Shown here piece after piece: positions 424-41,587 of a DNA stretch of 64,000 bases; the first letter of the stretch is position 1, and the number at the start of each line of letters is the position of its first letter. The notes under the pieces are model-generated. The model was given only the letters and a program-made list of their open reading frames with translations, was not told the DNA's origin and ran no database searches. Position numbers and translations under genes: made by a program. Source of the DNA: a virus; IMG/VR virus record IMGVR_UViG_3300044731_001604, positions 32,001 to 96,000 of that record. One strand, given 5' to 3'.

Positions 424-1577
424 TATGTGTCTTCACAATCCAAATCTGCGTTGTTAGAACCAACATAGTTTATACCAATTTTATTAGTAGAAACTACGTC
501 ATTAAAAGCGCAATCATTTATTCTATTATTCGATCCGTTAACTAATGCACCGACAGTTGATGTATTATTAGTTGAATTAGTTAAGTTAATACGGCAATCT
601 CTAATTCTGCAATAGTTTCCGGTTACAAGAACTGTATAGCTATTGTGCCCAGCTAATGTCTCAATGTTTAAACCGTCTAAAATACATCTGTTACCTAATT
701 CAATATATCCGCCAGATGCAATTTTAATAGCGCCAGAATCAACTGAGCTTGAAAGTTTGTCCATTCCTCGACCTAAAATTTTAATGCCATTAGTTAAAGT
801 AACGCCAGAAGATATGGTAAAAGTTTTCGTTATAAGAATAATTCCGCCACCCAAAGCAGTTAAGTCTGTGATAGCTTGTTGTAATTCTGTTTGATTAGAA
901 GCAAATTTTTCTGGATAAGCAGTTGCGCCAGAAACTAAAACTGCTCCCAATTGAGAAGTAGTTCCTGCTGGCCACATGATACCATGCGGAACAAATAACA
1001 AGTCGTTACCGCGTCTTAAGGCCAATGGAATACTAAATATTGAAGACGAACCAGTAGTAGTTATTTCAAGTTTTGGCATTGCAGTAGACATAGGTTGCTT
1101 AACAACTCTAAATCCAGTGCTAGTTGAACCGCCGTTAATTCCGTTTTCAAGATTGAAAGAACTTCCTTGGTCAACTAACAATGCAGAATCTAATTCTAGA
1201 TAAACTAATTCGCCGTCAGCGATATCAATGTATTCAAAAGTTGTAAGCGTGTTTGTAGCTCCACCTTGAAGTCTTAATACCATAGAGCTATTTACAGAAC
1301 CTTCAGTTGCTAATATTTCCATGCTCATAGAATTAACAAGAGTGTTGGCATCGAAACGAAGCTGTGTTCCAGTCCAAGTGATTTGACCACCTTCAGAATG
1401 AAGTATGTAATTAGTTTTTCTAGACAATTCAGCGATTGCTTTAAAAGTATTTTCTAAAGTAACTAAAGCGTTTTCCTGCTCATCAGAGTTAGCTAAAAAA
1501 GGAATTTGTCTGTCGATTGCTATTTCTGATAATTTAGTATTGCCTTGATTTTTGGGCTGATTAGAATCGTAACTCAT
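423..1577 (-). CDS. Putative tail fibre/virion protein with C-terminal beta-helix-like region
   Basis: Context next to collar gene; C-terminal LQQAITDL..GGGII..GxxCxIxxC repeats typical of right-handed beta-helix. Confidence 0.55.
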   Translation of the reverse strand: MSYDSNQPKNQGNTKLSEIAIDRQIPFLANSDEQENALVTLENTFKAIAELSRKTNYILHSEGGQITWTGTQLRFDANTLVNSMSMEILATEGSVNSSMVLRLQGGATNTLTTFEYIDIADGELVYLELDSALLVDQGSSFNLENGINGGSTSTGFRVVKQPMSTAMPKLEITTTGSSSIFSIPLALRRGNDLLFVPHGIMWPAGTTSQLGAVLVSGATAYPEKFASNQTELQQAITDLTALGGGIILITKTFTISSGVTLTNGIKILGRGMDKLSSSVDSGAIKIASGGYIELGNRCILDGLNIETLAGHNSYTVLVTGNYCRIRDCRINLTNSTNNTSTVGALVNGSNNRINDCAFNDVVSTNKIGINYVGSNNADLDCEDT

Positions 1578-1807
1578 TATTCCCCCCTAAGAAATTTGGA
1601 GATATCAATATTTGCAGCAGTGACTGTTTCGATAGCGTTAGCATTGGCTGGTTCAAATGTAGTAGTCAATATGTCCACTGGAAAAATTATATTCCCAGGG
1701 ATACTTCGTAAAGCCTCAAGCTCTCTAATTCTAGCATCTTTAAGTTCTAAAAGCTTGGTAAGCTCAACAACTTGCTCTCGTAGTAATTGTTCAATTGGAC
1801 TGCTCAT
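1577..1807 (-). CDS. Hypothetical protein, N-terminal coiled coil
   Basis: Coupled by TAATG overlaps to both neighbours. Confidence 0.6.
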   Translation of the reverse strand: MSSPIEQLLREQVVELTKLLELKDARIRELEALRSIPGNIIFPVDILTTTFEPANANAIETVTAANIDISKFLRGE

Positions 1808-2454
1808 TAGAATCCTTTTAAAACATATTTAAGAGTGAGTGGAACCCCTTCTAGATCAGAAGTATATTTTAATTTAACGCTTCCAGATTCCATAACAATA
1901 GAGAGCCAAGCGCTTACATCGTTACCGATTTCTGTAAAGGAATGATCATAAGCAACGGAGCTAAAGCCGTCATTTAATATGTTGAAATCGCCTTTTCTTT
2001 TACGGCCATTACCAGTAGTTCTTTGTAATGTGTATTCGATATTTGCAAATGGTTTAGATGAACCAACGAAAACCAAAGCATCTGCTAACGTAGCTTGGCC
2101 ATCTACTAAGGTGATTGTTAACGGAACTTCGCCGACGCCAGTCCAAATGTTAGCAGCTCTTTGATAAATAGTTGAAGAAGACCCTTGAATAACAATAGCT
2201 ACATCGCCATCTTTTGTTCCGGTATATAATACTTCCCAACTGTTTGGGTTAGTATCGGGCTGTAGACCTACGTTTGAATTTACTTTGGAACGGTACATCT
2301 TTCCAGAGTATTCTAAGCAATTATATTGTGAGTAAGTAGTTGAAACATCCCAGTAATCTACTAGGTTGTTTGAAGAAAATACAATAGCAGCGTTCGCGTT
2401 ATCGGTTAAAGAACCTCGACCTAAAGCTAATGAGTCTATTTTTTGTAATGCCAC
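1807..2454 (-). CDS. Virion protein with CBM5/12-like motif
   Basis: W-x4-Y...Y-x-G-x-x-Y...P-x4-SW motif (YWDVSTTY...YSGKMY...QPDTNPNSWE); late motif upstream. Confidence 0.55.
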   Translation of the reverse strand: MALQKIDSLALGRGSLTDNANAAIVFSSNNLVDYWDVSTTYSQYNCLEYSGKMYRSKVNSNVGLQPDTNPNSWEVLYTGTKDGDVAIVIQGSSSTIYQRAANIWTGVGEVPLTITLVDGQATLADALVFVGSSKPFANIEYTLQRTTGNGRKRKGDFNILNDGFSSVAYDHSFTEIGNDVSAWLSIVMESGSVKLKYTSDLEGVPLTLKYVLKGF

Positions 2455-2524
2455 TTTACTCCTCTCTTTGGGACCATCTGGGCCAAAAGACCAACAAGCA
2501 TTTCTGATTGCAGGAATTATCTAT

Positions 2525-2533
2525 AAGATTAGG
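2525..2533 (-). promoter_or_regulatory. Late-promoter-like motif CCTAATCTT
   Basis: One of 13 copies, all on minus strand, upstream of virion genes. Confidence 0.7.
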
Positions 2534-2580
2534 TTAAACTGCTATATATTACAATATATTAGGGTATATGGCATTTCAGG

Positions 2581-2609
2581 TTGATTTTATTCAAGTTTTG
2601 TGGTAATAT
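2581..2609 (+). promoter_or_regulatory. sigma70-type promoter for the small-gene array
   Basis: TTGATT-17 nt-TAATAT with extended TG. Confidence 0.55.
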
Positions 2610-2677
2610 TATTAGGTGGTGCCGCATACAAAGTTGCTCAAACAATTTGTGCGGAATTGCATTAACATCATTAAGTT

Positions 2678-2869
2678 ATGGAAATAATTATGGAATTATA
2701 TAAGCTTTTAGTTGTTAGAAATAGAGAAAAGAAGGTTATTGCCGAAAACTTGAGCAAAGAAGAGGTGTCTGTAGCAAAGACAGATTGGGCAACTATTTAT
2801 AATAACGACGTTTATTTCGATCCAGTTCCAGTGTTATTGGTTGAAGTGCAGCGTGAGGGTGAAGAATGA
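2678..2869 (+). CDS. Hypothetical protein heading the array (not a family member)
   Basis: ORF track; ATGA overlap with first family gene; start could be 2690. Confidence 0.6.
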   Translation: MEIIMELYKLLVVRNREKKVIAENLSKEEVSVAKTDWATIYNNDVYFDPVPVLLVEVQREGEE

Positions 2870-3066
2870 GGAAACGCGAGCAGGCAGAAGTACATAACGC
2901 CTTGTTCTATCAAGTAAGGTACATTCTAGATGTAATTCAAGAACCTGAAGAAGTTACAGAATATACTATTATGGATATCTTGTTAGATAATCGACTCAGA
3001 CCTGTTGATGTTGCTGAGTTGCAAAAGCAAGTAAGATATTTTATTGCGAATCGGAATATAAGGTAA
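2866..3066 (+). CDS. MKKRxQ-family small protein A1
   Basis: MRKREQ start, 66 aa. Confidence 0.75.
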   Translation: MRKREQAEVHNALFYQVRYILDVIQEPEEVTEYTIMDILLDNRLRPVDVAELQKQVRYFIANRNIR

Positions 3067-3070
3067 ATAT

Positions 3071-3268
3071 ATGGTCAAAAGAAGGCAGCTAAGTGATTTT
3101 CTTAAAAAGTATCTCTACAATAAGCTTTATAGCCAGTCTATGATCACAACTGAATACGTTTGGGACAAAGTATGGTACAGCACTAGACCTGATCTCTACC
3201 TATTGCTTCATGTTAATATCGAAATAGAAATTACTAAACACATAAGACAAATTAAGGCCACTAAATGA
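3071..3268 (+). CDS. MKKRxQ-family small protein A2
   Basis: MVKRRQL start. Confidence 0.75.
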   Translation: MVKRRQLSDFLKKYLYNKLYSQSMITTEYVWDKVWYSTRPDLYLLLHVNIEIEITKHIRQIKATK

Positions 3269-3456
3269 GGAAAAGAGACCAGATTGATGATTCTAAATTT
3301 TTTTGGCGATTAGTTGACCGCACCTTATCTTGGCGCATAGACGATGAACTTGGGGCATATCTTAGATGGCAATTTCGCGACAATTTAGATGATAACCTTT
3401 ACTATCACTTGTATAGACACATAAGCGATTTCTTAAGGCAAGAGGAATTAAAATGA
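3265..3456 (+). CDS. MKKRxQ-family small protein A3
   Basis: MRKRDQI start, 4-residue periodicity, ATGA overlap. Confidence 0.8.
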   Translation: MRKRDQIDDSKFFWRLVDRTLSWRIDDELGAYLRWQFRDNLDDNLYYHLYRHISDFLRQEELK

Positions 3457-3632
3457 GAAGAAGAAATTCAATTGATGCATACCATAGACTATTGCTCTCT
3501 CTTGCTAAGAATTCAGGTAAAGTCGTAAAAGATGACTATTTTAACAGACTTATGGATATAGTTCGCGAAGGGGCTAACCAAGAAATGAAAATTAAGCTCT
3601 ATGCCTATTTAAAAGATGTGAGGTCAAAATGA
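3453..3632 (+). CDS. MKKRxQ-family small protein A4 (59 aa)
   Basis: Not in track; MRRRNSIDAY...; ATGA overlaps at both ends. Confidence 0.7.
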   Translation: MRRRNSIDAYHRLLLSLAKNSGKVVKDDYFNRLMDIVREGANQEMKIKLYAYLKDVRSK

Positions 3633-3811
3633 AGAAACATATTCACATGGACGACATGTTTTATATAAAAATGCATACAGCCATAAAGTCTAGATTAGAT
3701 GATAGTTTGTACGATAGATTGTATTTTATATTTTTAGACGACAAGATGAATTGCATTAGGCGTGAATTGAGAAGACATATAGCAAATTCTCTCGTAAGAT
3801 GGCACAGATGA
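3629..3811 (+). CDS. MKKRxQ-family small protein A5
   Basis: MKKHIHM start, periodic LDDSLYDRLY core. Confidence 0.7.
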   Translation: MKKHIHMDDMFYIKMHTAIKSRLDDSLYDRLYFIFLDDKMNCIRRELRRHIANSLVRWHR

Positions 3812-3987
3812 GAAAACGAGAATTTATTGAAAAAAATTTTCATGAAAAAATCTATGAAAAATACCACGATCAACTTGATGCAAATTTGCATTTTAAATTA
3901 CACCAAAAAATATACCACGAACTACGTGAAGACATTTATTGGGAATTATATAAACAAGTTAGGAACATAGTAGCTAATTGGAGCTAA
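3808..3987 (+). CDS. MKKRxQ-family small protein A6
   Basis: Start revised to MRKREFI (ATGA overlap). Confidence 0.75.
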   Translation: MRKREFIEKNFHEKIYEKYHDQLDANLHFKLHQKIYHELREDIYWELYKQVRNIVANWS

Positions 3988-3988
3988 T

Positions 3989-4174
3989 GTGAAGAAACGT
4001 AAGCAATTAGATAAATTCTTTTTCAGAACACGAATGAGGTTGAATAAAGACATACCATTTCGTTTATATTCTAGTGGCCGCGTAAATCATTATATTGATT
4101 CATCTTTGACAAACAATTCTGTATGTAGCGGTATTATATTGTTAATTAAATCAGAAATCGAGGGCGAAGAATGA
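3989..4174 (+). CDS. MKKRxQ-family small protein A7
   Basis: GTG start, KKRKQL. Confidence 0.7.
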   Translation: MKKRKQLDKFFFRTRMRLNKDIPFRLYSSGRVNHYIDSSLTNNSVCSGIILLIKSEIEGEE

Positions 4175-4383
4175 GGAAGAGGGAGAGGGCCAACCTTCAG
4201 GTTAGAAGGTTAGTAGATTACATACCATGCGATATACTTACGGCTGGGTTAACAAGCAGAATCAGCTTTAAAGCCGCTGATATGTATGATATACTTAAAG
4301 TGGGTATTATTAATAGGCTTATACATTGCATACAAGACTATGATTCAAAAAAGGCATCAAATGAGGCGAAGAGAAATACTTAA
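4171..4383 (+). CDS. MKKRxQ-family small protein A8
   Basis: MRKRER start, ATGA overlap. Confidence 0.7.
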   Translation: MRKRERANLQVRRLVDYIPCDILTAGLTSRISFKAADMYDILKVGIINRLIHCIQDYDSKKASNEAKRNT

Positions 4384-4570
4384 CCAGCAGTTTTATATTT
4401 GGAACGAAAGCCAATGGATTGATAAGCTTTGGTATCAACTTGGAAGCGAGAGAACTAAGGTATTGATACCATTTATTAAAAACCATATTGGTGTTGAACT
4501 TAAAGAACAGATATATGGACAGCTTAAGTGTAATTTGAGATTACATGTAAGAAATACTGAAGGGATTTAA
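4361..4570 (+). CDS. MKKRxQ-family small protein A9
   Basis: Start revised to MRRREIL inside track ORF 4286..4570. Confidence 0.7.
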   Translation: MRRREILNQQFYIWNESQWIDKLWYQLGSERTKVLIPFIKNHIGVELKEQIYGQLKCNLRLHVRNTEGI

Positions 4571-4571
4571 G

Positions 4572-4751
4572 ATGATAAAAAGAATTCCTATTTCTAGTGA
4601 AAAGATTAGCGATAAGCTTTTTGATATGGTGTATAGTCAACCTTATTATGGAATGCGAAAGCGTATTCGTAATCAACTTAGTGTTAAGCTCAGTAACCAA
4701 TTATATCAGGAATTGATTTTGCCTATTGCCTATCAAAAGAGGGTTAATTAA
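4572..4751 (+). CDS. MKKRxQ-family small protein A10 (59 aa)
   Basis: Not in track; MIKRIPI...IRNQLSVKLSNQLYQEL...QKRVN. Confidence 0.75.
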   Translation: MIKRIPISSEKISDKLFDMVYSQPYYGMRKRIRNQLSVKLSNQLYQELILPIAYQKRVN

Positions 4752-4752
4752 T

Positions 4753-5001
4753 ATGAAAAAGCGAAAACAGTTGGAGAATCAGTTCGGGTATCAGTTGGGG
4801 TATGAGTCGGTGAATCAGTTGGTGAATCAGTTGAGGTATCAGTTGGTGTATCAGTTGGTGTATCAGTTGGTGTATCAGTTGGAGAATCAGTTGGTGAATC
4901 AGTTGGAGAATCAGTTGAGGTATCAGTTGAGGTATCAGTTGAGGGATCAGTTGGTGAATCAGTTGAGAAAAACTGAAACTGTTTACAAGAGGGTTAATTA
5001 A
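4753..5001 (+). CDS. MKKRxQ-family small protein A11, near-perfect (QLxx)n repeat
   Basis: Start revised to MKKRKQL at 4753; 82 aa. Confidence 0.75.
   Translation: MKKRKQLENQFGYQLGYESVNQLVNQLRYQLVYQLVYQLVYQLENQLVNQLENQLRYQLRYQLRDQLVNQLRKTETVYKRVN
4768..4968 (+). repeat. 12-bp tandem repeat CAGTTG-RDG-DAT, 16 units plus a partial
   Basis: Read directly; encodes QL[VERG][NYD]; two units carry point changes (QFGY, ESVN). Confidence 0.95.
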
Positions 5002-5002
5002 T

Positions 5003-5185
5003 ATGAAAAAGCGAAAACAAATTGCAGACATATCATTTAATGTTTTCAGAGAAGCATTTATTACACAGATTTATAAAAAAAGTGACTTAAAGTATAATTG
5101 CATAATTGATGAGCAACTGACCTCTAAATTAGTAAATCAGACTCTTGGATATCAAATACGATACTTGATTATAGGTTTGTTCTAA
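5003..5185 (+). CDS. MKKRxQ-family small protein A12
   Basis: MKKRKQI start. Confidence 0.75.
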   Translation: MKKRKQIADISFNVFREAFITQIYKKSDLKYNCIIDEQLTSKLVNQTLGYQIRYLIIGLF

Positions 5186-5365
5186 ATGGTTAAAAGAATC
5201 CCACTCAAAGACGGATTATATGTTAAAATAGACAGTGCTTTTAACTGCCAGTTAGAGTACAAAGTCTATACGCTGCTTCGTGAAAAGCTTTTCGTTGTTC
5301 TTTGGGACGAAATTAGGGATCAACTTGAAAGAAATGTCAGAATATCTTTAAAAAACAGGGCATAA
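5186..5365 (+). CDS. MKKRxQ-family small protein A13 (59 aa)
   Basis: Not in track; MVKRIPL...LWDEIRDQLERNV. Confidence 0.75.
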   Translation: MVKRIPLKDGLYVKIDSAFNCQLEYKVYTLLREKLFVVLWDEIRDQLERNVRISLKNRA

Positions 5366-5366
5366 G

Positions 5367-5540
5367 ATGAGGAAAAGAGAGCAGATTGATAACATTTTAT
5401 TTGTTCAATTTACAGATGTGCTTAAAGACTCATTTGGGGACAATGTAAGCATGCCATTTTTTTATAAGATAATGCTGGCATTACAAGGGGAATTAGTTGG
5501 CGAACTTTATAGACAATTAGAATCACAGGTGTTGAGATGA
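5367..5540 (+). CDS. MKKRxQ-family small protein A14 (57 aa)
   Basis: Not in track; MRKREQIDN. Confidence 0.75.
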   Translation: MRKREQIDNILFVQFTDVLKDSFGDNVSMPFFYKIMLALQGELVGELYRQLESQVLR

Positions 5541-5734
5541 AGAAACGAGAACAACTGATAACTAACTTATATTTTAAATTTTATAAGAAATATAACGATT
5601 TGCCAAATGAGGAAACTTTTGATATAATCAACGGAGAACTTGGCGATAAGTTAAATAGACAGATTTGGTATCCTGTTCGTGGGGAGTTATTCGATCAACT
5701 TTATTGTCATACTATTAAGAAAGAAGCGAAATGA
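5537..5734 (+). CDS. MKKRxQ-family small protein A15
   Basis: MKKREQL start. Confidence 0.8.
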   Translation: MKKREQLITNLYFKFYKKYNDLPNEETFDIINGELGDKLNRQIWYPVRGELFDQLYCHTIKKEAK

Positions 5735-5940
5735 AAAAACGAGTTCAAATACCTGGGCATCTTGGTGACAAATTGTGGGAACAACTGGCTTACACCATGA
5801 GCGGTCAATTAAGATTCAAGCTTAAAATGGTTTTAGCAAACTCTAGTTTAGTTGATGAATATGACACTGCTGCGGCGCATTGCCACCTTAGAAAAAATGT
5901 TTATTGCCACCTTAGATTTAACAGTGGGATTAGAAAATGA
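5731..5940 (+). CDS. MKKRxQ-family small protein A16
   Basis: MKKRVQI start. Confidence 0.8.
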   Translation: MKKRVQIPGHLGDKLWEQLAYTMSGQLRFKLKMVLANSSLVDEYDTAAAHCHLRKNVYCHLRFNSGIRK

Positions 5941-6107
5941 GACAACGCGATCAAATATATAGACATTTTTCTTCGCATTTAGATTATGAACTAAAGTGTT
6001 TGTATAGAAATCAATTTGATGAGTGGTTGTTTTATCATATTGGGCGAAACATAGGAAATACTGTCAAGTATGATCTTATTAATTTGCAGGAATTGTTGGG
6101 AAAATGA
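5937..6107 (+). CDS. MKKRxQ-family small protein A17 (56 aa)
   Basis: Not in track; MRQRDQI; ATGA overlaps at both ends. Confidence 0.75.
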   Translation: MRQRDQIYRHFSSHLDYELKCLYRNQFDEWLFYHIGRNIGNTVKYDLINLQELLGK

Positions 6108-6295
6108 GAAAGCGCGAAGAAATAAGTGTTATAAACAGCATAGACCAGATTTCTAGAAACAAAATGCTTATTCAAGTAGGTACGCCTGTACGTAATCAGA
6201 TTGTTAGCAGATTGCGCGACAATCTTTTAAATGAACTATTAGACCAACTGTATATGCATACGGCTTATTACCTCAATGAGAGGGTGACAAAATGA
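6104..6295 (+). CDS. MKKRxQ-family small protein A18
   Basis: MRKREEI start. Confidence 0.8.
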   Translation: MRKREEISVINSIDQISRNKMLIQVGTPVRNQIVSRLRDNLLNELLDQLYMHTAYYLNERVTK

Positions 6296-6489
6296 AAAAA
6301 AGGATTGAGATTGATTCCATGGTTTTTGATAAGATTCAGGAGCATCTTTTTAATTTTTATTTCGATAAGAGAATTGATCGGTCGCTATACAAGAAATTCT
6401 TAGATGATCTTGAGGAATCTGACGCAAACAATTCCGTCAATCTTATAATGTCGGCAGTAATTTGGCGCATTGAAAGGGAAACACTATGA
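6292..6489 (+). CDS. MKKRxQ-family small protein A19
   Basis: MKKRIEI start. Confidence 0.8.
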   Translation: MKKRIEIDSMVFDKIQEHLFNFYFDKRIDRSLYKKFLDDLEESDANNSVNLIMSAVIWRIERETL

Positions 6490-6683
6490 AAAAACGTGAT
6501 CAAATTAACTATCAACTTTATGAGCTATACTTTGAATTTAATAAACTGTATCCAAAGTTATCATCAACAAATGATTATTACGTAATTAATACTGCAACAA
6601 GAACAGCACTTTATGATATGTTTTACGGTGAAATTAGATGGCATCTTAAAGGTTTTGTGAGAGATTTTAAGGGTTTGTCATGA
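6486..6683 (+). CDS. MKKRxQ-family small protein A20
   Basis: MKKRDQI start. Confidence 0.8.
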   Translation: MKKRDQINYQLYELYFEFNKLYPKLSSTNDYYVINTATRTALYDMFYGEIRWHLKGFVRDFKGLS

Positions 6684-6874
6684 TAAAGCGTAAGCAGATT
6701 AACGACAAAGTACATAGTAGACTACTCAAAGTGTGCTTTTCTAAATTAAAATTACCCAACAATGTTTACTTCGCAATTCATGACAGGCTTACTGAAAAAC
6801 TATATGAAATTAGTTGGGGGCAGATTAGAAGCAAGGTTTACGACGAAATACATATGATAAGTAAAGTGAATTAA
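6680..6874 (+). CDS. MKKRxQ-family small protein A21
   Basis: MIKRKQI start. Confidence 0.8.
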   Translation: MIKRKQINDKVHSRLLKVCFSKLKLPNNVYFAIHDRLTEKLYEISWGQIRSKVYDEIHMISKVN

Positions 6875-6875
6875 A

Positions 6876-7067
6876 ATGACTAAAAGATATCAATTAACAG
6901 ACAGATTATATACCAGCGTACTAAGAGTATACATGCCGTCCTCTTCTTGGGTATATGACATGCTGCTTGATGAAATTTATAATCCCATTTATTTACAACT
7001 TAGGGATCAACTTAGAGAACACGTTCGCAACAGTATCGAATCGTTAAAGCAAAGTGAACTAAAATGA
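6876..7067 (+). CDS. MKKRxQ-family small protein A22
   Basis: MTKRYQL start; LQLRDQLREHV. Confidence 0.8.
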   Translation: MTKRYQLTDRLYTSVLRVYMPSSSWVYDMLLDEIYNPIYLQLRDQLREHVRNSIESLKQSELK

Positions 7068-7261
7068 TTAAAAGAGAGCAGATCGACAGCCAGATAGATA
7101 TTATATTATATGCATACGTTGATGAACAAATTTATTATCAATTGGATAAGCTTTTTGAAAATTTCTTGAGAGAAGAGCTTGATGACCAATTATATACGGA
7201 GCTTGATATAAATCTTCGTCTTGAGCTGTACAGATATCTAAATAATGGGGTATTAAGATGA
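7064..7261 (+). CDS. MKKRxQ-family small protein A23
   Basis: MIKREQI start; strong 4-residue periodicity. Confidence 0.8.
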   Translation: MIKREQIDSQIDIILYAYVDEQIYYQLDKLFENFLREELDDQLYTELDINLRLELYRYLNNGVLR

Positions 7262-7443
7262 AGAAGAGAGAATGTTTAGAGATGAAATTAGGTGATAAAC
7301 TAGCTTTCAAATATTATAATGAGTTACAAGATGGCCAACACCATTTAATATACGCTCATGTAAAAAAAACTCTCGTGAAAGAGGTTCACCAAAATGTTAG
7401 AACTCAGCTAAGTGCCTATCTGAGAGCAGAGGTACCAAAGTGA
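7258..7443 (+). CDS. MKKRxQ-family small protein A24
   Basis: MKKRECL start. Confidence 0.8.
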   Translation: MKKRECLEMKLGDKLAFKYYNELQDGQHHLIYAHVKKTLVKEVHQNVRTQLSAYLRAEVPK

Positions 7444-7661
7444 TAAAACGCGAGCAGATTGATAGTCATATATATACTTTTATCTATGATGATTTATACA
7501 ATCAGCTATATGGTCAAATTAGCGTCACGTGCGGTAAATGGACATTTGACTATGTTTACAGTAGTTTAACTTTGCAGTATTATAACTTATCATCAGATGG
7601 CCAGTACAGCTCTTTGGTAAACATCGTTTTAACTGATCTAGAGAAAAAGGTGTTGAAATGA
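7440..7661 (+). CDS. MKKRxQ-family small protein A25
   Basis: GTG start, IKREQI; GTGA overlap. Confidence 0.75.
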   Translation: MIKREQIDSHIYTFIYDDLYNQLYGQISVTCGKWTFDYVYSSLTLQYYNLSSDGQYSSLVNIVLTDLEKKVLK

Positions 7662-7837
7662 GAAAAAGAGAGCAGATTGACAACACATTGGATGACAATA
7701 TAAGAGACATTTTGAATGTCAGCTTGGGCTCTAACTTTAGAAATCAAATGTTTTCACGTATTTATAGAAATGTTAGCGCAAGGGCTGATCTGCTACATTT
7801 TATATATTACTATATAAGTACACAAAAGGTTAAATAA
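7658..7837 (+). CDS. MKKRxQ-family small protein A26 (59 aa)
   Basis: Not in track; MRKREQIDN. Confidence 0.75.
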   Translation: MRKREQIDNTLDDNIRDILNVSLGSNFRNQMFSRIYRNVSARADLLHFIYYYISTQKVK

Positions 7838-8037
7838 TGAGGAAAAGAGTACAGATAGACAGACAAATTAATGAGAATCTCAGAGACCCTTTTTACGTAA
7901 AGCTTAGTAATCAATTTAATTATTATGCTTACAATGACATTAGGTCTAACCTATACCCAGAACTTTTCTTGATTGTATACGATCAATTATATAATAATAT
8001 ATATTATGTCATGAGAGAATTGGTAGTGTCAAAATGA
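7837..8037 (+). CDS. MKKRxQ-family small protein A27
   Basis: MRKRVQI start. Confidence 0.8.
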   Translation: MRKRVQIDRQINENLRDPFYVKLSNQFNYYAYNDIRSNLYPELFLIVYDQLYNNIYYVMRELVVSK

Positions 8038-8279
8038 AAAAGCGAGATCGGTTACTAGATAACACAATGAGTCGGTTAATAGATCTTTTAGAAGACAGGC
8101 TTGAGAATAAGATAGTGGATTATTTGGGTTGTCAGTTAGATGATAAGTTATATTATGAGTTTAGAAGTGAGTTAAGAATTAAGTTTTATGATCGGTTAGT
8201 AGATCAAATGAATAATCAACTAAGACATCATTTAAGGACGCAAGTATATGGAGTCGAGAGAAAACATAGAAATATTTGA
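8034..8279 (+). CDS. MKKRxQ-family small protein A28, repeat still visible in DNA
   Basis: MKKRDRL; recurrent GATCGGTTA-like units. Confidence 0.8.
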   Translation: MKKRDRLLDNTMSRLIDLLEDRLENKIVDYLGCQLDDKLYYEFRSELRIKFYDRLVDQMNNQLRHHLRTQVYGVERKHRNI

Positions 8280-8427
8280 TTATACTCGTATAATAATGAG
8301 ATCGTCATATTTTTCTTCTAACAAAATTATATTTGAAACAGATCAAAAGCTCATGTGTATGCTAATTCCATTTTTTCTAGAAATGAGGCAGCAAATCAGG
8401 GAGCATATTACGGGCAATTGCAAATGA
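8248..8427 (+). CDS. Divergent family member A29 (59 aa)
   Basis: Not in track; MESRENI...MRQQIREHI; fills the gap and ends in an ATGA overlap. Confidence 0.55.
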   Translation: MESRENIEIFDYTRIIMRSSYFSSNKIIFETDQKLMCMLIPFFLEMRQQIREHITGNCK

Positions 8428-8603
8428 AGAAACGTAAACAGATTTTCTTGAAGGAATATAACCGCGTATTTACTAAAATGGGTATGCCACTTCCGTCTTC
8501 AGTTGAAGAGGCGGTAGAAACTCAGTTAAAAGATAAGCTTAGGGATGAATTGTTACACCAACTTAGGCTTCACGTTAAAACCCATTTAATGGAAATGAAA
8601 TGA
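8424..8603 (+). CDS. MKKRxQ-family small protein A30
   Basis: Start revised to MKKRKQI. Confidence 0.8.
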   Translation: MKKRKQIFLKEYNRVFTKMGMPLPSSVEEAVETQLKDKLRDELLHQLRLHVKTHLMEMK

Positions 8604-8794
8604 TTAAAAGAAAAATGATACAATACAATTTTAAGACTTTGTTCCACGATTGCCTGTATTCTCAACTTGAGCCAATATTGTATCATAGGCTAAGAGACAG
8701 CTTAAACCATAAGCTTCAGCACTATACGCATAACCCACTTAAGATAGAGCTTTACTATCACATGAATGAAAAGAAAAGCTCCAATTCTAATTAA
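8600..8794 (+). CDS. MKKRxQ-family small protein A31
   Basis: MIKRKMI start; stop overlaps the convergent gene's stop. Confidence 0.8.
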   Translation: MIKRKMIQYNFKTLFHDCLYSQLEPILYHRLRDSLNHKLQHYTHNPLKIELYYHMNEKKSSNSN

Positions 8795-11700
8795 GCAACA
8801 CCAACTGGTTGATATTCAACAGAAATTGCCCATTGAATAGTCGCACCACTAGTACCATAAACAACCGCAACAACATCATTACCTGAAAGAGCAAATGTAA
8901 TTGCATAGTCGCTACCATCGCCATCATATCCATTGATGTTTGAGATAGGGCTTCCAGCAGCTTGAGCCGTTCCACCTGATCTGTAGAAAGTTCCCTCTAA
9001 AGCAAATGAACTAACACCGAGTGGGCCATCGCTTCTTCTAGCAACTGCATTAACTTTAATTCTATAAGAATAGTTATCAGATAAAGTAACTTCAGATCCG
9101 CTAATGATTGTACCAGTAGCTCCAACAACAACTTGCGCAGCAGTTTTTCTAGTTACCGCTGAGTCTGGATGAGATGAATGAGTTTTAAGTTTCTCTACAC
9201 CAGTCCAAACTTCTTTTGGTTTATTGTTTTCTCTACCGATTACAAAGCTTTGGTCTGTAGATTCATTGAATATTCCACCAAGCGCACTTGTTCCGCCAGC
9301 GATTGCAATTGAACCTCTGTTAATGAAACTTGTTTCGCCACCGTTTACGTTTGAAGCAGTTATATTAACCGGTCTTCCTGGGGAAGTTTGAATATCAGCG
9401 CCAGTATTATAAGCCGCTTGTAAACTGATGTCAGCAGATTTAGCTGCTAATACAGATCCATAAGAAGCCATGGCTCTGAAACGGAGTCTAGTATTAGGTG
9501 GTAAAGTACGCTTAAGTCTGATCTTAGCTTTTGGGCCACCAAACGTTTCAACGTAATCGTAACCAGCTTCTCTGATTCCATCATTAACAATAACTAAAAG
9601 CTCTTCGCCAGTTAAGCTCAACTCAGTTGTTTGTTTATAAACTGAATGTGCTCCGTAAGTACCGATACCGCCAGCAGAAAGAACTTCTGTACGTTTATTC
9701 GGTGGAAGAACTAATTCTGTTCCAGTATCACCAAGTGGTGCTGGATCTCCATAAAGTGATACGCCAGCAAAAGGACCATCACCTGGGTTATTCACGGTTC
9801 CTACCATATTGCCGTTTTGGTAAATGCTTGTACCATCAGCAAAGGTACCATTAACTATGTTAATGACAATTGAATTACTACCTTGTAGACCGCCCGGCAT
9901 AACGATAGAAGCAGATTCTATTGTTTCAGTTACATCGGCACTTCCGTGAAGAACCCAGGCTAGGGAGGTGGGACTTTCGATTGAACCTTGGTAGATGTAA
10001 CTGCCTGAGCGTATAATATCTCCGCCAAAATTTGGCGTAAAATCCATTTTTTGTATATAGACAGACTCATCGTATACTGGTCTCTTAAGAGCAGTATTGA
10101 TGCTCCCAACATTCCTGTCCTGTTTTCTATGTGCCAAAGTCAAATTGTCTTGGTCTTCAATGTGCTGATTAACTTGGTAATAAGCCAAAGTATCACTAAC
10201 ACTTAAAGCTGAAATATTTTGATCAACTATAACTGTAATAGACGACAATGGGAATTTAACTGTGTAATAATGGTGATTTCCACTTAAGTCAATAAACTCA
10301 AGCTTATCACCAGTTTGATAACCTAAAAGGTTTGAAGCACTCAAAGTAATCATTTGAGTTTTAGCGTCTAATGCTATAACCTCAACTTGAGATTTATAGA
10401 TGTAAGATCCGCTAGCATCTGCAATACTGTAGTTTGGATTAACTGCAGATTCAGTCATCGCACCAGTGTAAACTAAGTGGTTTGAACCTTGGTTATCGTT
10501 AACCTGTCTTACTTCACCTGGCTCCATCTCTAAAGATCTGAAGTAAACTTTAGCAGAATTATTGTTATCTCTACGTAATGCAAACCAGTAGATATCTGAA
10601 GAGTTTTCAACTAGATAATGCTTAGTAACAAAAACGTCAGAGTAAACACCTTTAGTATAAACCATAGCGCCAGTGTTAGCTGGTCTGTGTACTGTGCTAG
10701 GTGCTTGGCCATCGTTTCCGACTAAGATCATAGATGATGTTGAGATGCTGCCAATTTTTAACCAATGAGAATCTTCTTCATTAGCAAACTTAACAAAGTC
10801 TCCTACTTCTAATAGATTACCGCTGATATCTAAGAAGTTACCAGCAATTGTAGCACTTCCGCCCAATGTACTGTAAACAACACCATTAGAGATTGGTTGA
10901 TTTCTTTCTAACTTAACAAAAGCAACTTCGCCATCTTCCAAGAAAGCTGTGCCAGTTACGCCACTTGTGTTAAACTTGTTAGCTTCAGGTGAAGATCCAG
11001 TAGTATCTACTGTAGCAGTTTGTGGAATAGTGATAGCTAAATCACCGACAACAGACTTAACAACCATGTCACCAGTCCATTGAACCGGACCTGCGTATGG
11101 ATTATTGTCGAAATTTAAGAATACATTTTGGATACCAGTGTTAGTGAAATCAGTTCCGCTTGGGATCTCAGTAGTGCTAGTTAATTTAAATGATGTAGCA
11201 TCAATGTAAGTTAACGTAACTAGCTTATATGCTTTAATAAAAGGAGATAAATTTGAATCGCCATGAATAACAACTGTAGTTGATGGGTTAGAAACTAAAC
11301 CATGATCAACAGTAGTAGTTACTTTAACTTCAGTAGCAGAAAGCTTTTGGATAGAAACAATTCTATTTGGATTAGCTACAGTAGTTTCAGCAACAACTGT
11401 ATCAAAACAGATATCACCACTAGCACTGAATAATTCAGGTAATGCGCTATCTTGTCCAACTGTGTATTGAGCTTTATCGCCAGCGATACAGAAAATTGCT
11501 TGATTAGTTGTATTGTAAGTATTTGAAATAGCGCCAGTAACAGTTGTAATAACTTTGTGGAAAGCTATCTCAGCGTAACCGCCAGTATTAATTTGTGTAA
11601 TTGCTGGATATCCTAGATCAACTGTGATATCTTCACTTACCCCAATGCTTTCAATAGTTTTAATACCGCTAGCTTCTCTATTAGGAGCGCCGATAACTAC

Positions 11701-13542
11701 TAAGTCAGATAATAAAACAACTTGTTTAGCAATAAAGCTAGTGCCAGATGGTAAGGCAACTATAGTAGATGAGATAAATAAAGTATTTGTAGCAACATTA
11801 ATATCTAAGATGTAAGCATAACCGCCAGTGATGTTTGCATCAGTAATTTTCATACCGTTTTCAAATGAAGAGATATTACCAGAAGTTACTGCTATATAGT
11901 TAGCGCCACCAACAAAAACAGTTGTACCTGTAACTGGAGCTTTAAACGTATTTCTTGGAATAGTTAAAACAGCAAAGCCAGGGGTTGCATCCATAGTAGC
12001 ATTTGTGATTTCTAACGGTGAAGTAAATGGATGTCTAACTGTTTGATCAGTTAAATCAACGCCATTGGTACCGCTTACAGTTGCTACACCGCTTTGTTGT
12101 TTATTAACAGCATAAGTTAAAACATTGCCTTGGATCTTTAAAATTCTGTGTGTTCCAGTAGCTGAATCATCTGCTGCAGAAATGCCAGAAACTTTAATGA
12201 ATTGACCAGGCGCGAAGTTGGCGATGTTAGAAACATTGATACTAATTAAAGAAAACGAAAAATCTGATACAGAGTTAGTTACGTTCTCATAACTCCAGCT
12301 ATTGATATTACCAGCAGTAGTGCTAGATGATTTTCTTTGTAAAGTACCAAGTCTAGCTGTGTTATGTGGCTCATCAATTAAAAGCCAGCTAGCAGAAGAT
12401 GGTCTAAACTTGCGTCTGAATCTTAAGCTCTCTGAATAAACAAAACCAGCAGAAGTCAATGAGTTAATTAAGGTGCTGTTATTATTAAATGAAGTAACTG
12501 TAGCTTTAACACCAGAAGTAGCACCCTCAACATACGCATCACCAGATAAAACAGTTGAATCAGTGAATGATGACTGATAGTTACCATCAGTTGGAGTAGT
12601 AGTCTCTAAAACTAAGTTGTAAGAAATAGCGCCAGAACCAGTTAAAACTGATCCAACAGAATCCCACCAAACGCTATTAATAGTTGGTGAACCAGAACCT
12701 GCAACAGAGTTTGTATACCAGTAGTTTGACCCAGTTATCTCTTTTAATCGGGTCATGATGCTATCCATCCAATCCTTAAGATTTTTGATAGCAAAATCAC
12801 CGTAGTCAAAAGCTTGAACGTCTTTACCAGGAGTTACAGAAACTGGATTAGCTCCAACAACGTCTGAAGTCCATTCTTTTCTTCCATCTAATGTTTGGGT
12901 ATTTGTTAAGTTGCCCCAGTTGAAAGAATTAGCTGGATCTGGGTTAGCTCCACCAGAACCTAAACGAAATAAGTTTTGAGTTGCTTTTGTAATAGAAGAA
13001 ACTTTACCGTTAACATCAGTATAAACTATGTATAGAGGTAAATAAGTACTGAAACCAATTGGAGAAATAATATAACGGTATTCTAATACTTTACCGATAG
13101 CTGTGCTTCTTTGGTATTCTAATTTTTGAGATGCAGACCATCCGCTCATTGCGTCGATAGTCGAAGTATCTGTAACGCGTCTGTAATCCAAAGAGACATA
13201 GTTCGCAACACCTGATTGGAATGAACCGATAACTTTATTATTGCTTGAATCTAAGATATCGTTTGCAGTTCCAGCAGGTACGGTCAAGATTGTTCCAGAT
13301 TCAGATGCAGTTGAATGTAAGATTGCTGAATCAGAAACTTCTATTTCAAGGTTAGTTGCAGCAATTGCATTTTGAGGAATTTTTATTCTGAATCCTCTGA
13401 TAAGATAAGGTTTATTTAAACCAGTTACCATACCTCGGATAAAAGAATCAAAATCATATGCAACCGAAGACTCGATGCTCTTTACATGAGAAACATCTAA
13501 TCTTGCACCACTAAAAAAATTTAGTCTACGTTTTACGCTCAC
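8791..13542 (-). CDS. Large baseplate/tail-associated structural protein (1583 aa)
   Basis: G/S/T-rich beta-type sequence, follows baseplate genes, late motif upstream. Confidence 0.65.
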   Translation of the reverse strand: MSVKRRLNFFSGARLDVSHVKSIESSVAYDFDSFIRGMVTGLNKPYLIRGFRIKIPQNAIAATNLEIEVSDSAILHSTASESGTILTVPAGTANDILDSSNNKVIGSFQSGVANYVSLDYRRVTDTSTIDAMSGWSASQKLEYQRSTAIGKVLEYRYIISPIGFSTYLPLYIVYTDVNGKVSSITKATQNLFRLGSGGANPDPANSFNWGNLTNTQTLDGRKEWTSDVVGANPVSVTPGKDVQAFDYGDFAIKNLKDWMDSIMTRLKEITGSNYWYTNSVAGSGSPTINSVWWDSVGSVLTGSGAISYNLVLETTTPTDGNYQSSFTDSTVLSGDAYVEGATSGVKATVTSFNNNSTLINSLTSAGFVYSESLRFRRKFRPSSASWLLIDEPHNTARLGTLQRKSSSTTAGNINSWSYENVTNSVSDFSFSLISINVSNIANFAPGQFIKVSGISAADDSATGTHRILKIQGNVLTYAVNKQQSGVATVSGTNGVDLTDQTVRHPFTSPLEITNATMDATPGFAVLTIPRNTFKAPVTGTTVFVGGANYIAVTSGNISSFENGMKITDANITGGYAYILDINVATNTLFISSTIVALPSGTSFIAKQVVLLSDLVVIGAPNREASGIKTIESIGVSEDITVDLGYPAITQINTGGYAEIAFHKVITTVTGAISNTYNTTNQAIFCIAGDKAQYTVGQDSALPELFSASGDICFDTVVAETTVANPNRIVSIQKLSATEVKVTTTVDHGLVSNPSTTVVIHGDSNLSPFIKAYKLVTLTYIDATSFKLTSTTEIPSGTDFTNTGIQNVFLNFDNNPYAGPVQWTGDMVVKSVVGDLAITIPQTATVDTTGSSPEANKFNTSGVTGTAFLEDGEVAFVKLERNQPISNGVVYSTLGGSATIAGNFLDISGNLLEVGDFVKFANEEDSHWLKIGSISTSSMILVGNDGQAPSTVHRPANTGAMVYTKGVYSDVFVTKHYLVENSSDIYWFALRRDNNNSAKVYFRSLEMEPGEVRQVNDNQGSNHLVYTGAMTESAVNPNYSIADASGSYIYKSQVEVIALDAKTQMITLSASNLLGYQTGDKLEFIDLSGNHHYYTVKFPLSSITVIVDQNISALSVSDTLAYYQVNQHIEDQDNLTLAHRKQDRNVGSINTALKRPVYDESVYIQKMDFTPNFGGDIIRSGSYIYQGSIESPTSLAWVLHGSADVTETIESASIVMPGGLQGSNSIVINIVNGTFADGTSIYQNGNMVGTVNNPGDGPFAGVSLYGDPAPLGDTGTELVLPPNKRTEVLSAGGIGTYGAHSVYKQTTELSLTGEELLVIVNDGIREAGYDYVETFGGPKAKIRLKRTLPPNTRLRFRAMASYGSVLAAKSADISLQAAYNTGADIQTSPGRPVNITASNVNGGETSFINRGSIAIAGGTSALGGIFNESTDQSFVIGRENNKPKEVWTGVEKLKTHSSHPDSAVTRKTAAQVVVGATGTIISGSEVTLSDNYSYRIKVNAVARRSDGPLGVSSFALEGTFYRSGGTAQAAGSPISNINGYDGDGSDYAITFALSGNDVVAVVYGTSGATIQWAISVEYQPVGVA

Positions 13543-14068: not shown

Positions 14069-14313
14069 GCGTTACCTCCAAAATTAACGTAAGGTGGAAT
14101 AGTACCAAAATCTATTCCAAACTTGCTTTTGCTTAAGTTTGCGATAATCTTAAGCTTTTCCCGTGAACGCGATAACGCATCTTTAATATCATCAATGTTT
14201 CCTGCGTATGGACCTAAGTCTTCTAAATCACTAAGCTCTTCAGCAAGGTTGATGTACTTATAAAGCTCAGCCTCATATAAAGATCTAATAGTGTATTCAT
14301 CAGAAGACATCAT
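14065..14313 (-). CDS. Hypothetical protein
   Basis: ATGA-coupled within the baseplate operon. Confidence 0.6.
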   Translation of the reverse strand: MMSSDEYTIRSLYEAELYKYINLAEELSDLEDLGPYAGNIDDIKDALSRSREKLKIIANLSKSKFGIDFGTIPPYVNFGGNA

Positions 14314-16535
14314 TCAGGACCCCACACCCATAGAGCATCGCTAACCTTTGTATCAGTACTAACAAGAGATTCGCCTGCGTTACCTAGACCAACATCGCCA
14401 GGATAAATAATAATAACTTCTAATTTAATACCTAAAGCCGTGATTTGTATAATTAAATCGTTGGCAAAAATTCTTCCACCACTTGTTCCTGTGATATACG
14501 GAGCATAATCTGACCCGTCCATTTCTGGCTCATAAGCAATAATGTCAGATAGAAGCGTTATGTCTGTACCAACTTCTTGTGTATATTTAAAAGAATAAGA
14601 CGAATCCATAACTAAGGTACTAACAGCAGATTCAACTAAAGGAGTTGATGTCCCAGAATTTTCATAAAAAGTACCAGATACTGGATTAGTGAAAGTATAG
14701 ATATTAGCAGATGGAACTGATTCAACCGTCCAAGAATTATTGAAATTAGTTGTGCCAGCTATTAGCACGTCTTGGCCAACAACAGCGCCATGTGAACTAG
14801 CAGTTGTAACAGTTACAGTATTTCCAACCTGAGATATAGAGCTTATTGTTACAGCAGCAACACCAGAAGCAGTTTGAGCTGCGATGTATTTAACTGGGCT
14901 CTCTTCATTGTCTTGGTTTAATGAAAACAATAAGTTACCTTGCTCATTAGGCAAAACACCTTCAATTAAAAGCGTGTTTCTTTTCTCCCCAGCTAAAACC
15001 TTTTCTCTTAACTTAACCATTGTAGACGTCAAAGTAAACTTGTTTTCAGAGTTTACAATATAAGGTCCTAGGAACGAATTTGCTGTATCGTCTGTGGCCA
15101 CAACTGTTTGAATTCCAATAATCTTATCAGTTAGTTGCATTCCATTGATAACGCCATAAGGAAGATTGTGATTAGTTTTAGTAATAATAGTTACGTAACC
15201 ATTTTCTCTAGTGATCGTCTCTATGTCTATTACATTAGAATCCCAAGTAAGTGTTCCATTAGTAGATGAAACATCGTAACCATTTGTTTGATACCTAACA
15301 GTATTATAAGAAACAACGTGAACCTTTTCTGAATCAACTGTAGCTGACCCGAAAGATCCGTTTAATTCACTATCACCATATTTTAAATGTAAGTGAGCTG
15401 CACCAATCAAGTTTCTTTCAACCACATTTGTGGTAGCCGGCATGTAAACTTTTAATAAAGAATCCTGTGGCTCCCATGCTAACGAATATCTCATCTGAGA
15501 ATAAGGAGTCGCTTTCTTAGGTAAGAAAAACTTCAAATCATCATAAGAGCTTTGCGTAAGAGTAATTGTATAAGTTTTAGACGGAGTGTTAATCGGTGCC
15601 GGCAAGTTGGGTGTGCTTGATGCTAGTGGAGAGTTGCCTTCCATAGAAAACTCAAAATACCCAGCACTATATGAAATAGTGTTAGCCGGCGGAACAACTG
15701 CCGTAATAGTGTAAGTACCAACGAAACCAGCAGTTTCAAACTGTGGTCCATATAATAACAATGTGTCGCCAACTAATACTTTATCTAAAAGTGGGGCAGA
15801 GCCAGAAACCCAGCGGAAGCGATGAGTTGAACCGACGTTTCTAGTTATTTCCCAAACAGTGTCATTATAAGTTAAAACGGTTGCTCTCATTGTTGGAAAT
15901 TCTAATTTAGATTGGATCTTGCCGCCAAGAACTTTAATATAAGAAAAAGGACCTTTTGCCCCACCGTATATCTCAACATATTGTAATTGTGTATCTTGGT
16001 CAGTGTAAACTTGAGCAAATCCATTAGAGCCATTTTGTCTGATGAATCGTGTAATGATATCGGCCACTTCACCTGGGGTAGCATTCTGAATATTTTCAAA
16101 CTCATCACCGATCAAGGTAAGAGTTAGCGCTTCACCGTTTTCTAGTTCAAATATTAAATCATCACCAGCTTCAAATGAATAAGAGCCTGGGACACCGGAT
16201 GTTACATGCGCTCTGACTGCCTCATTCCCATAGAACGTGGTCAGAATATTATGGATTGATTCTATAACCTGTTTAGATTGATTAATAGATATACCCAATT
16301 GTCTGTATGCTACATCCGACATCCCAAGTTCTTGTGGTCTAACTATTCCAATTTCTGAAAACTGTTTGTCCAAGTAGATATCTTCTGCCGTTGATTTATA
16401 TAATTGATTGTTTACCGAAACGGATAAATCATCTTGCTTTTGTAACTGGTCTGCAATAGCTTGCAGTAGGGCCTCTGAGTTGGGCCCTGTTATCCAATTA
16501 CTTATGTATTGTCTAAGTTGAGTTAATTTATCCAT
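14310..16535 (-). CDS. Baseplate wedge-associated protein (741 aa)
   Basis: Follows baseplate J; ISSISQVGNTVTVTTASSHGAVVGQDVLIAG beta module. Confidence 0.55.
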   Translation of the reverse strand: MDKLTQLRQYISNWITGPNSEALLQAIADQLQKQDDLSVSVNNQLYKSTAEDIYLDKQFSEIGIVRPQELGMSDVAYRQLGISINQSKQVIESIHNILTTFYGNEAVRAHVTSGVPGSYSFEAGDDLIFELENGEALTLTLIGDEFENIQNATPGEVADIITRFIRQNGSNGFAQVYTDQDTQLQYVEIYGGAKGPFSYIKVLGGKIQSKLEFPTMRATVLTYNDTVWEITRNVGSTHRFRWVSGSAPLLDKVLVGDTLLLYGPQFETAGFVGTYTITAVVPPANTISYSAGYFEFSMEGNSPLASSTPNLPAPINTPSKTYTITLTQSSYDDLKFFLPKKATPYSQMRYSLAWEPQDSLLKVYMPATTNVVERNLIGAAHLHLKYGDSELNGSFGSATVDSEKVHVVSYNTVRYQTNGYDVSSTNGTLTWDSNVIDIETITRENGYVTIITKTNHNLPYGVINGMQLTDKIIGIQTVVATDDTANSFLGPYIVNSENKFTLTSTMVKLREKVLAGEKRNTLLIEGVLPNEQGNLLFSLNQDNEESPVKYIAAQTASGVAAVTISSISQVGNTVTVTTASSHGAVVGQDVLIAGTTNFNNSWTVESVPSANIYTFTNPVSGTFYENSGTSTPLVESAVSTLVMDSSYSFKYTQEVGTDITLLSDIIAYEPEMDGSDYAPYITGTSGGRIFANDLIIQITALGIKLEVIIIYPGDVGLGNAGESLVSTDTKVSDALWVWGPE

Positions 16536-32939: not shown

Positions 32940-33128
32940 ATGACTAAGCGCGAATTGTCCGCATCTGTTTACATATTGGTTACTTTTATTATATGCTATT
33001 TTGCTTATGGTGTTTATCAGACAAAACAACAAATTTCTCAAGCTTGTGAAGATCAGTGCTACCCGGCGGATGTTAAAGACGCAGATATGCAATATTGTAA
33101 ATGTTTTTACAAAAAAGCTGGGATGTAA
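32940..33128 (+). CDS. Small membrane protein, Cys-rich C-terminus
   Basis: TM helix then CxxxC...CxC. Confidence 0.6.
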   Translation: MTKRELSASVYILVTFIICYFAYGVYQTKQQISQACEDQCYPADVKDADMQYCKCFYKKAGM

Positions 33129-39535: not shown

Positions 39536-39558
39536 GGAAATCTCCTATTATAATAATA

Positions 39559-41582: not shown

Positions 41583-41587
41583 TTTAA

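Follow-up and report, generated by a model that had tools for sequence, protein, structure and literature searches.

A tandem array of phage mini-genes whose bodies trace to the tetrapeptide tract of DUF6745 proteins

The window analyzed here is a 64,000-nucleotide (nt) stretch of a viral genome (positions 32,001 to 96,000 of IMG/VR virus record IMGVR_UViG_3300044731_001604, which comprises 157,572 bp and is estimated to be 98% complete). Between positions 2866 and 8794 it carries 31 consecutive plus-strand mini-genes, the main array of a larger paralogous family. Each mini-gene encodes a protein of 56-82 amino acids (aa) that begins with a short conserved head, M-[KR/IV]-K-R-x-Q-[IL], and continues with a body of decayed x-x-Q-hydrophobic tetrads. 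Sequence comparison supports the view that the array members are genuine, conserved mini-genes maintained by selection, and profile searches show their bodies to be diverged or decayed copies of the x-x-Q-[L/V/I] tract that is present in most phage proteins carrying the DUF6745 domain (Pfam PF20530). On balance, we favor the idea that the mini-genes encode exchangeable helical modules, derived from this tract, that engage a common partner and probably function in host interaction.

The array was first described as gap-free, and so it is. Within its 31 open reading frames (ORFs) the largest gap anywhere is 4 nt; of the 30 junctions, 19 overlap by an ATGA and 6 leave a single nucleotide between genes, with spacings of 0, -1, +4, -23, or -32 nt at the others. 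Motifs of the GAGG/AAGG type, which resemble Shine-Dalgarno sequences, precede most of the start codons. ORF calls place a 63-aa leader at 2678-2869 on the same strand; this leader is not a member of the family, overlaps member 1 by an ATGA, and has no match in either Pfam or PHROGs. Leader and array together are flanked on either side by a block of tail and fibre genes on the minus strand.

Several lines of evidence indicate that the array is probably translated as called. The presence of 31 successive open frames of about 60 codons in DNA of 34% G+C excludes chance. For 24 of the 31 members, a codon model trained on the 49 long genes of this phage favors the called frame against either shifted frame, and for 7 of the 10 members tested, independent pipelines have called identical proteins on 9-12 contigs drawn from four sources. 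Two contigs of more distant origin (Logan SRR23086397, 10.4 kb, and JGI 3300059473, 9.0 kb) encode orthologues with 84-89% identity, which differ mostly by exchanges among I, V, and L, between K and R, or between D and E; these orthologues were compared as proteins, while the comparison at the level of DNA covers relatives that are 99.8-100% identical. The series of gene lengths on these two contigs, taken by itself, suggests collinear arrays in which a few members have been gained or lost. A non-coding repeat element was also considered as an explanation for the array, and was rejected on the basis of the open frames, the codon bias, and the synonymous variation within the head.

The head is most constant at two positions: Arg is found at position 4 in 30 of the 31 array members and I, L, or M at position 7 in 29. 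The complete motif M-[KRIVT]-[KRQ]-R-x-[QE]-[IL] is matched by 19 of the 31, so the preliminary description, in which nearly all members fit it, holds for these positions but not for the motif as a whole. Arg4 is specified by codons from both Arg boxes (AGA in 14 members, CGA in 6, CGC in 4, CGT in 4, and AGG in 2), K3 by AAA or AAG, and Q6 by CAG or CAA. Because synonymous codons vary at conserved positions, the head is a peptide signal rather than a DNA repeat. The diversity of the Arg4 codons, the identity of the orthologues, and the mostly conservative nature of their differences all bear out the earlier proposal of selection, which had been drawn from the absence of frameshifts and premature stops. 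The description of the bodies as hypervariable applies between paralogues, whose identity is at most 42%, but not between strains, since a near-identical strain shows no substitution in the 22 members that are covered.

The bodies follow a period of four residues, as had been noticed at first sight. Hydrophobic autocorrelation at lags of 4, 8, and 12 residues amounts to 0.22, 0.12, and 0.145, respectively, compared with -0.015 +/- 0.023 in shuffled sequences (about 10 standard deviations), and it is absent at lags of 3, 7, and 11. Likewise, there are 331 hydrophobic triples at i, i+4, and i+8 where 132 +/- 11 are expected. When the head is set aside and member 11 is omitted, there are 74 Q-[LIVM] dipeptides versus an expected 32.8 +/- 4.7 (z = 8.7), the reverse dipeptide is depleted, and tandem Q-hydrophobic units occur 23 times versus 1.5. 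A leave-one-out profile built from bodies only recognizes 31 of the 43 family members in the window and 20 of the 31 in the array (E<=0.01). Members 1, 4, 7, 8, 17, 19, and 29 have the head, size, and position in common and nothing more.

Modeling with AlphaFold2 from a 45-row family alignment yields, for member 23, a single continuous helix that spans residues 3-64 with a mean predicted local distance difference test score (pLDDT) of 91. Each mini-gene is predicted to encode one alpha-helix of about 60 residues. The proteins are not membrane-like, their longest apolar run being 6 residues, and their isoelectric points (pI) range from 4.3 to 10.1. These results support the initial picture of a phage-encoded set of small helical proteins that have a handle in common at the N-terminus but diverge strongly in their bodies.

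The origin of the bodies emerges from profile searches. The mini-proteins match no family in Pfam, PHROGs (searched with 43 members), NCBIfam, or PADLOC, and no member contains a DUF6745 domain. Array DNA has no match among cultured phages, and single-protein searches of viral contigs and two metagenome sets return no close relative. A profile of the whole family, however, gives 620 matches among 1.84 billion representatives, 152 of them at E<=1e-10 and the best down to 1e-40. Nearly all of the matched proteins are 350-550 aa long, and each is matched two to eight times in tandem. In these proteins a long (x-x-Q-L/V/I)n tract separates a domain at the N-terminus from the DUF6745 domain at the C-terminus; 131 of the top 150 matches carry the DUF6745 domain, and the matches fall within the tetrad tract. 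When member 11, whose body is a microsatellite, is left out of the profile, all 150 of the 150 real proteins are still matched, together with 4 reversed and 0 shuffled decoys. The similarity is therefore specific for direction and independent of the microsatellite member. Using tblastn, even one member alone finds the tract of gp38 (482 aa) of the Mycobacterium prophage prophiGD102-1. In the ESM Atlas, clusters of tract-bearing DUF6745 proteins are 88-95% viral.

Given that the bodies are decayed DUF6745 tract and that the window also contains a DUF6745 gene without a tract, the system represents a split form of a catalogued but unstudied family and not an orphan. The statement in the preliminary description that no such system was known is accordingly not supported as worded, as the bodies trace to the tract of PF20530/phrog_31813 proteins; the hidden Markov model search that it called for has matched no family of known function. 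In the literature searched there is no mention of DUF6745 or PF20530, nor of the split layout.

Relative to the tract, the head can be read as the first R-x-Q-I tetrad of the repeat. The idea that it was copied from a conserved junction motif preceding the fused tract was examined in 120 fused proteins and discarded: no such motif is conserved among them, and only an ordinary tetrad is found there. As an isolated case, gp38 of prophiGD102-1 reads K-G-K-R-E-Q-L at this junction.

Member 11 (4753-5001) is the youngest member and is still a length-polymorphic microsatellite. Its body (4768-4965, plus strand) consists of 16.5 in-frame copies of a 12-bp unit. It is bracketed by the two copies of an exact 33-nt direct repeat (repeat family D9; plus strand, 4737-4769 and, 250 nt downstream, 4987-5019), which contains the gene end, ribosome-binding site, start codon, and head of the junction. 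A contig in ENA (L030) matches window positions 1167-7253 at 99.77% over 6,087 aligned columns. It differs by two single-nucleotide polymorphisms, both in the leader ORF, and by the in-frame absence of the 12 nt at 4836-4847, which removes one V-Y-Q-L unit from member 11. Two further contigs (L031 and L032) both stop at 4766, where the microsatellite begins. Elsewhere, the leader ORF and member 7 both end in E-G-E-E and are followed by similar starts, forming a 31-nt repeat that is 81% identical (2855-2885 and 4160-4190); it may record an earlier duplication of a junction, similar to that at member 11. New members come about through junction duplication together with slippage of the 12-bp unit, then diverge, and are finally maintained individually.

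Beyond the main array, the family profile identifies further members for a count of 43 in the window and 44 in the whole genome, slightly fewer than the 45-47 first estimated for the window. The 43 occupy 8.4 kb, or 5.3% of the genome. Two lie at 33128-33495 (plus strand), the second overlapping by 4 nt the start of a 5'-3' exonuclease gene (33492-34382); two on the minus strand at 38038-38421 are immediately downstream of a DUF2201 gene. A second plus-strand array of six members (41391-42555) begins 24 nt past the stop codon of the DUF6745 gene, and lone members of 72 and 73 aa are found at 43189-43407 and 43779-44000, respectively, both on the plus strand. The intact member outside the window (63 aa, head M-K-K-R-E-Q-F) is located at about 105120-105311 of the record on the minus strand, just upstream of a gene for a P-loop (GSGKDT) protein. 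Three small plus-strand ORFs (42552-42728, 43999-44208, and 46169-46417) have the head-like starts M-K-K-N-K-I, M-K-K-R-E-G, and M-R-A-R-D-Q, respectively. They are missed by the family profile at E<=0.01 and may be degenerate family members.

The DUF6745 protein of the window, the presumed core of the system, is a tract-less protein of 208 aa encoded at 40741-41367 on the plus strand (PF20530, phrog_31813). It scores 32.8 bits against PF20530, for which the cut-off is 27, and aligns with positions 8-88 of the 206 in the profile; phrog_31813 matches its N-terminal part. Between its residues 80 and 102 the core has 22 residues where 59 aligned relatives hold 110-267, with a median of 161. It is also without the C-terminal extension of about 100 aa that is present in fused relatives, and no other ORF in the genome matches the missing half. 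AlphaFold2 predicts one compact unit (pLDDT 89.7, predicted template modeling score 0.81) in which the site of the tract is a lower-confidence surface segment. Comparison of this fold with the PDB gave no usable match (best E value 0.42 with Foldseek, best Z score 4.8 with VIA-align).

Two minus-strand genes neighbor the core gene. A small histidine-rich partner gene was also looked for, and none is evident beside the core. The first (38429-39535) encodes a protein with DUF2201_N and DUF2201 domains, which are metallopeptidase-like and VWA-like, respectively (Pfam E values of 1e-16 and 3e-14; 53.7 bits for DUF2201_N and 61.4 bits for DUF2201). The second (39559-40641) encodes an AAA_5 ATPase of the MoxR type (Pfam 23.9 bits, cut-off 22; phrog_1297, E 2e-50). 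As expected for a MoxR/VWA pair, the AAA_5 ATPase gene adjoins the gene for the VWA-like protein (38429-40641). Known pairs of this kind mature or remodel specific protein complexes. To our knowledge, no link of MoxR/VWA pairs to DUF6745 or to arrays of mini-proteins has been described.

Short DUF6745 proteins are not confined to this phage. In metagenomes, tract-less homologues, each about 200 aa long, number at least 140 and are 45-97% identical to the window core. Six further contexts of short DUF6745 genes were examined (L020, L022, L023/L024, L025, L026, and L027), making seven with the window. In all seven, AAA_5 and DUF2201_N/DUF2201 genes are present within about 2.5 kb of the short DUF6745 gene, although order and strand vary; three contexts of fused DUF6745 genes have no such neighbors. 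Mini-genes with the head M-x-K-x-x-Q-hydrophobic are found in five of the six other contexts, while shuffled DNA yields 0-0.4 ORFs of this kind.

There are 19 head-bearing mini-genes in L020, with the head M-K-K-H-K-Q-[IV] and bodies of nearly pure tetrads, and two in L025, with the head M-K-K-H-K-Q-I and bodies of pure tetrads. L026 has several, with heads such as M-K-L-K-M-Q-I and M-R-R-R-T-Q-I, and tetrads are present in some of their bodies but not in others. The 13 mini-genes of L022 (head M-P-K-L-[EK]-Q-[FL]) and the 5 of L027 (head M-[TA]-K-H-x-Q) have non-periodic bodies. In the region 6432-15977 of L020, a 105-kb viral contig, about 20 mini-genes begin with M-K-K-H-K-Q and end with Y-E-E-T; the 14 nt that specify this constant tail also specify, in a different frame, the head of the following gene, and neither can change freely without the other. 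At 9055-18099 of L022, at least 13 mini-genes surround the short DUF6745 gene; their bodies are missed by the window family profile, and here the head has outlived the repeat. Since the bodies change across lineages while the head stays, the conserved part of the family is the head M-x-K-x-x-Q-hydrophobic. A conserved head joined to a freely changing body is the pattern expected from a docking handle that carries a variable surface.

Relatives of the phage itself differ in what they carry. The virus is a contractile-tailed phage whose 911-aa sheath protein is 36% identical to the sheath of Myxococcus phage Mx1. Its closest available relative (G001), with a sheath that is 56% identical and with synteny throughout, has neither the mini-gene family nor DUF6745. 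In G001 the slot that corresponds to the array (5.8 kb; L010/L011, record positions 78464-84133) holds about 15 unrelated plus-strand genes. Flanked by tail-fibre blocks, the slot is hyperplastic. In G003, a more distant relative, DUF6745 takes the conventional fused form (minus strand; L006, record positions 3-461); the contig ends inside the (D/Y/R)-S-Q-L repeat of this gene, where the repeat seems to have broken the assembly.

Other features of the window can be stated briefly. Four very large proteins are encoded on the minus strand in the virion region: 1583 aa (8791-13542), 741 aa (14310-16535), 2043 aa (16554-22685), and 868 aa (22723-25329). Their homologues in G001 are 43-51% identical, and the three that were compared with Pfam (1583, 741, and 868 aa) have no match there. 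A promoter and terminator scan finds matches to consensus promoters at the level of chance (35 versus 31.9 +/- 4.3), so the single sigma70-like promoter of the preliminary description was overstated, and a shared TTTTGTGGTA-type motif upstream of the plus-strand operons is not above chance. Scans of the window with Rfam and for tRNAs give no match.

Together, these observations can be accommodated by a mechanism in which the constant head would engage one common partner, most likely the tract-less DUF6745 core, possibly aided by the ATPase/VWA pair. One phage would thereby make many variants of one complex, and by analogy with tetrapeptide-repeat counter-defence proteins the targets of this complex are probably factors of the host or of competitors. 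Counter-defence or another role in host interaction is proposed because of the analogy with Tweety gp54 (discussed below), the placement of the genes in early or replication-type operons and in a plastic slot, and the amplification of counter-defence genes by phages. For binding to the core, the predicted complex of the core with member 23 has a median score of 0.36 (runs of 0.80, 0.26, and 0.36), and the best of 3 controls has a score of 0.01; the runs share at least 80% of their contacts, with a partner pLDDT of at least 61. Among 80 solved complexes 58 attain the mark for this score, as do 2 among 110 mismatched pairs, with scores of at most 0.60 held by only 7 of the 80 and by both of the mismatched pairs that pass. 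This modeling offers a hint that a mini-protein may bind the core. A more specific version of the mechanism, "one core, many blades," would have about 45 single-helix proteins dock by their heads on the core, with the ATPase/VWA pair loading or exchanging them; the result would be a repertoire for recognizing variable defence or receptor proteins of the host, and new blades would be born from 12-bp slippage. In this full form the proposal is decidedly unlikely.

A number of points weigh against the idea of exchangeable modules on a common partner. The complex prediction is weak, and the counter-defence role is argued from analogy. The main array is 32 kb from the core gene, and the stoichiometry of about 45 mini-proteins to one core is unexplained. 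Seven array members have bodies that are no longer recognizable as tetrads, and the non-periodic bodies in L022 and L027 mean that what these proteins do may not depend essentially on a helix of tetrads. L023/L024 holds the trio of core, ATPase, and VWA genes without recognizable mini-genes. The core lacks the C-terminal half of the DUF6745 domain and, therefore, may not act as the fused proteins do. Finally, the DUF6745 fold resembles nothing solved, and an activity cannot be inferred from it.

Some of these same points would be natural if the mini-genes formed a stand-alone library of effectors, as the preliminary description proposed. Every mini-protein would then work alone against a host target of its own, as a decoy or an inhibitor; the head would aid translation, stability, or localization, and DUF6745 would simply be the source of the sequence. 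The distance of 32 kb between the largest array and the core, the scattering of members over several operons, their individual conservation, the weak support for core binding, and the wide differences among surfaces that the range of pI (4.3 to 10.1) implies are all in keeping with such a library. Yet the peptide sequence of the head persists in lineages whose bodies are entirely different, as would be expected of a common partner more than of a function in translation. In addition, mini-genes cluster tightly around the genes for the short DUF6745 protein and the ATPase/VWA pair in five other lineages, and G001, the closest relative, lacks both the family and the core. Thus, a library of independent effectors seems unlikely.

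The mutational engine that is visible in member 11 raises the question of whether the array is largely a neutral by-product, with junction duplication and 12-bp slippage continually making small ORFs that are tolerated and have little function. The closest relative does without the array and fills the slot with unrelated genes, and seven members have unrecognizable bodies, as neutrality would allow. However, all 31 frames are open in DNA of 34% G+C, the head is conserved despite synonymous variation, and the orthologues, at 84-89% identity, show mostly conservative changes. Moreover, 5.3% of a size-limited genome is spent on the family, and the design recurs in several lineages; neutrality is very unlikely to be the main explanation. 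The internal-protein locus of T4, where a constant N-terminal tag is present on highly divergent small proteins, provides the precedent for another possibility, namely that the head is a capsid- or virion-targeting signal and that the variable bodies are packaged and ejected into the host with the DNA. Here, however, all virion genes are encoded on the other strand from the arrays, and the genes to which the arrays are coupled, among them that for the 5'-3' exonuclease, are of the replication type; moreover, the head reads as the first R-x-Q-I tetrad rather than as a separate signal. Furthermore, no conserved motif of the cleavage type is recognizable after the head. Packaging into the virion is hardly credible on this evidence, and the notion of exchangeable modules that share a partner remains our preferred one.

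Phage genomes are limited in size, yet several unrelated large phages hold arrays of this kind around the genes for a VWA protein, an ATPase of the MoxR type, and a short DUF6745 protein. Should the mini-proteins indeed be exchangeable parts of one complex, then a virus would generate diversity through a multigene repertoire and not through a single hypermutating gene, a strategy for which we know of no description, and DUF6745, a large viral family, would gain its first functional handle. If the more specific scheme of blades on one core were also true, one virus would display dozens of germline-encoded binding surfaces on a single scaffold. The array also makes gene birth visible in progress, from microsatellite to decayed repeat to unique sequence. 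What the window itself contributes is a head conserved across lineages at the peptide level, the finding that AAA_5 and DUF2201 genes accompany the short core, the C-terminal truncation of the core, and a one-unit polymorphism in the youngest member.

The nearest known relatives of the system are the fused DUF6745 proteins (prophiGD102-1 gp38 and P0002-P0005), which have the x-x-Q-[L/V/I] unit in the same direction and contain 12-bp in-frame arrays like that of member 11. In the fused proteins, though, the tract is located inside one protein of about 450 aa, whereas here there are about 45 separate genes that have their own start and stop codons and a conserved head, and that have mostly moved beyond pure repeats. 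The fused form also lacked AAA_5 and DUF2201 neighbors in three contexts, while the short-core clade is linked to both. T4-type internal proteins have a conserved N-terminal tag that ends in a prohead-protease site, and their genes are expressed alongside head genes. The mini-proteins also bear a conserved tag; their genes run opposite to those of the virion and belong to operons of the replication type.

Mycobacteriophage Tweety gp54, like Che8 gp57 and PMC gp51, is a non-essential protein with 15-48 in-frame tetrapeptide repeats encoded by a 12-bp unit, and its repeat number shifts readily, tuning counter-defence against Phrann gp29/gp30 (PMC2884959, PMC9262239). It shares with the present system an in-frame change in length of one unit between close strains, seen here in member 11 only. 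Its unit is A-A-x-x rather than x-x-Q-hydrophobic, the sequences are unrelated (the 43 members matched no PHROG), and gp54 is a single fused protein and not a multigene set, so the analogy is functional only. A second precedent is the T4 tifA "accordion," in which tandem recombination amplifies a small accessory counter-defence gene under selection by host defence (Srikant et al. 2022, PMC9391042). The junction repeats of the array could drive unequal crossing-over in a similar manner. However, the copies of tifA are identical and recent, while those of the array are old, 15-40% identical, and individually conserved, which argues for a diversified repertoire rather than an increase in dosage.

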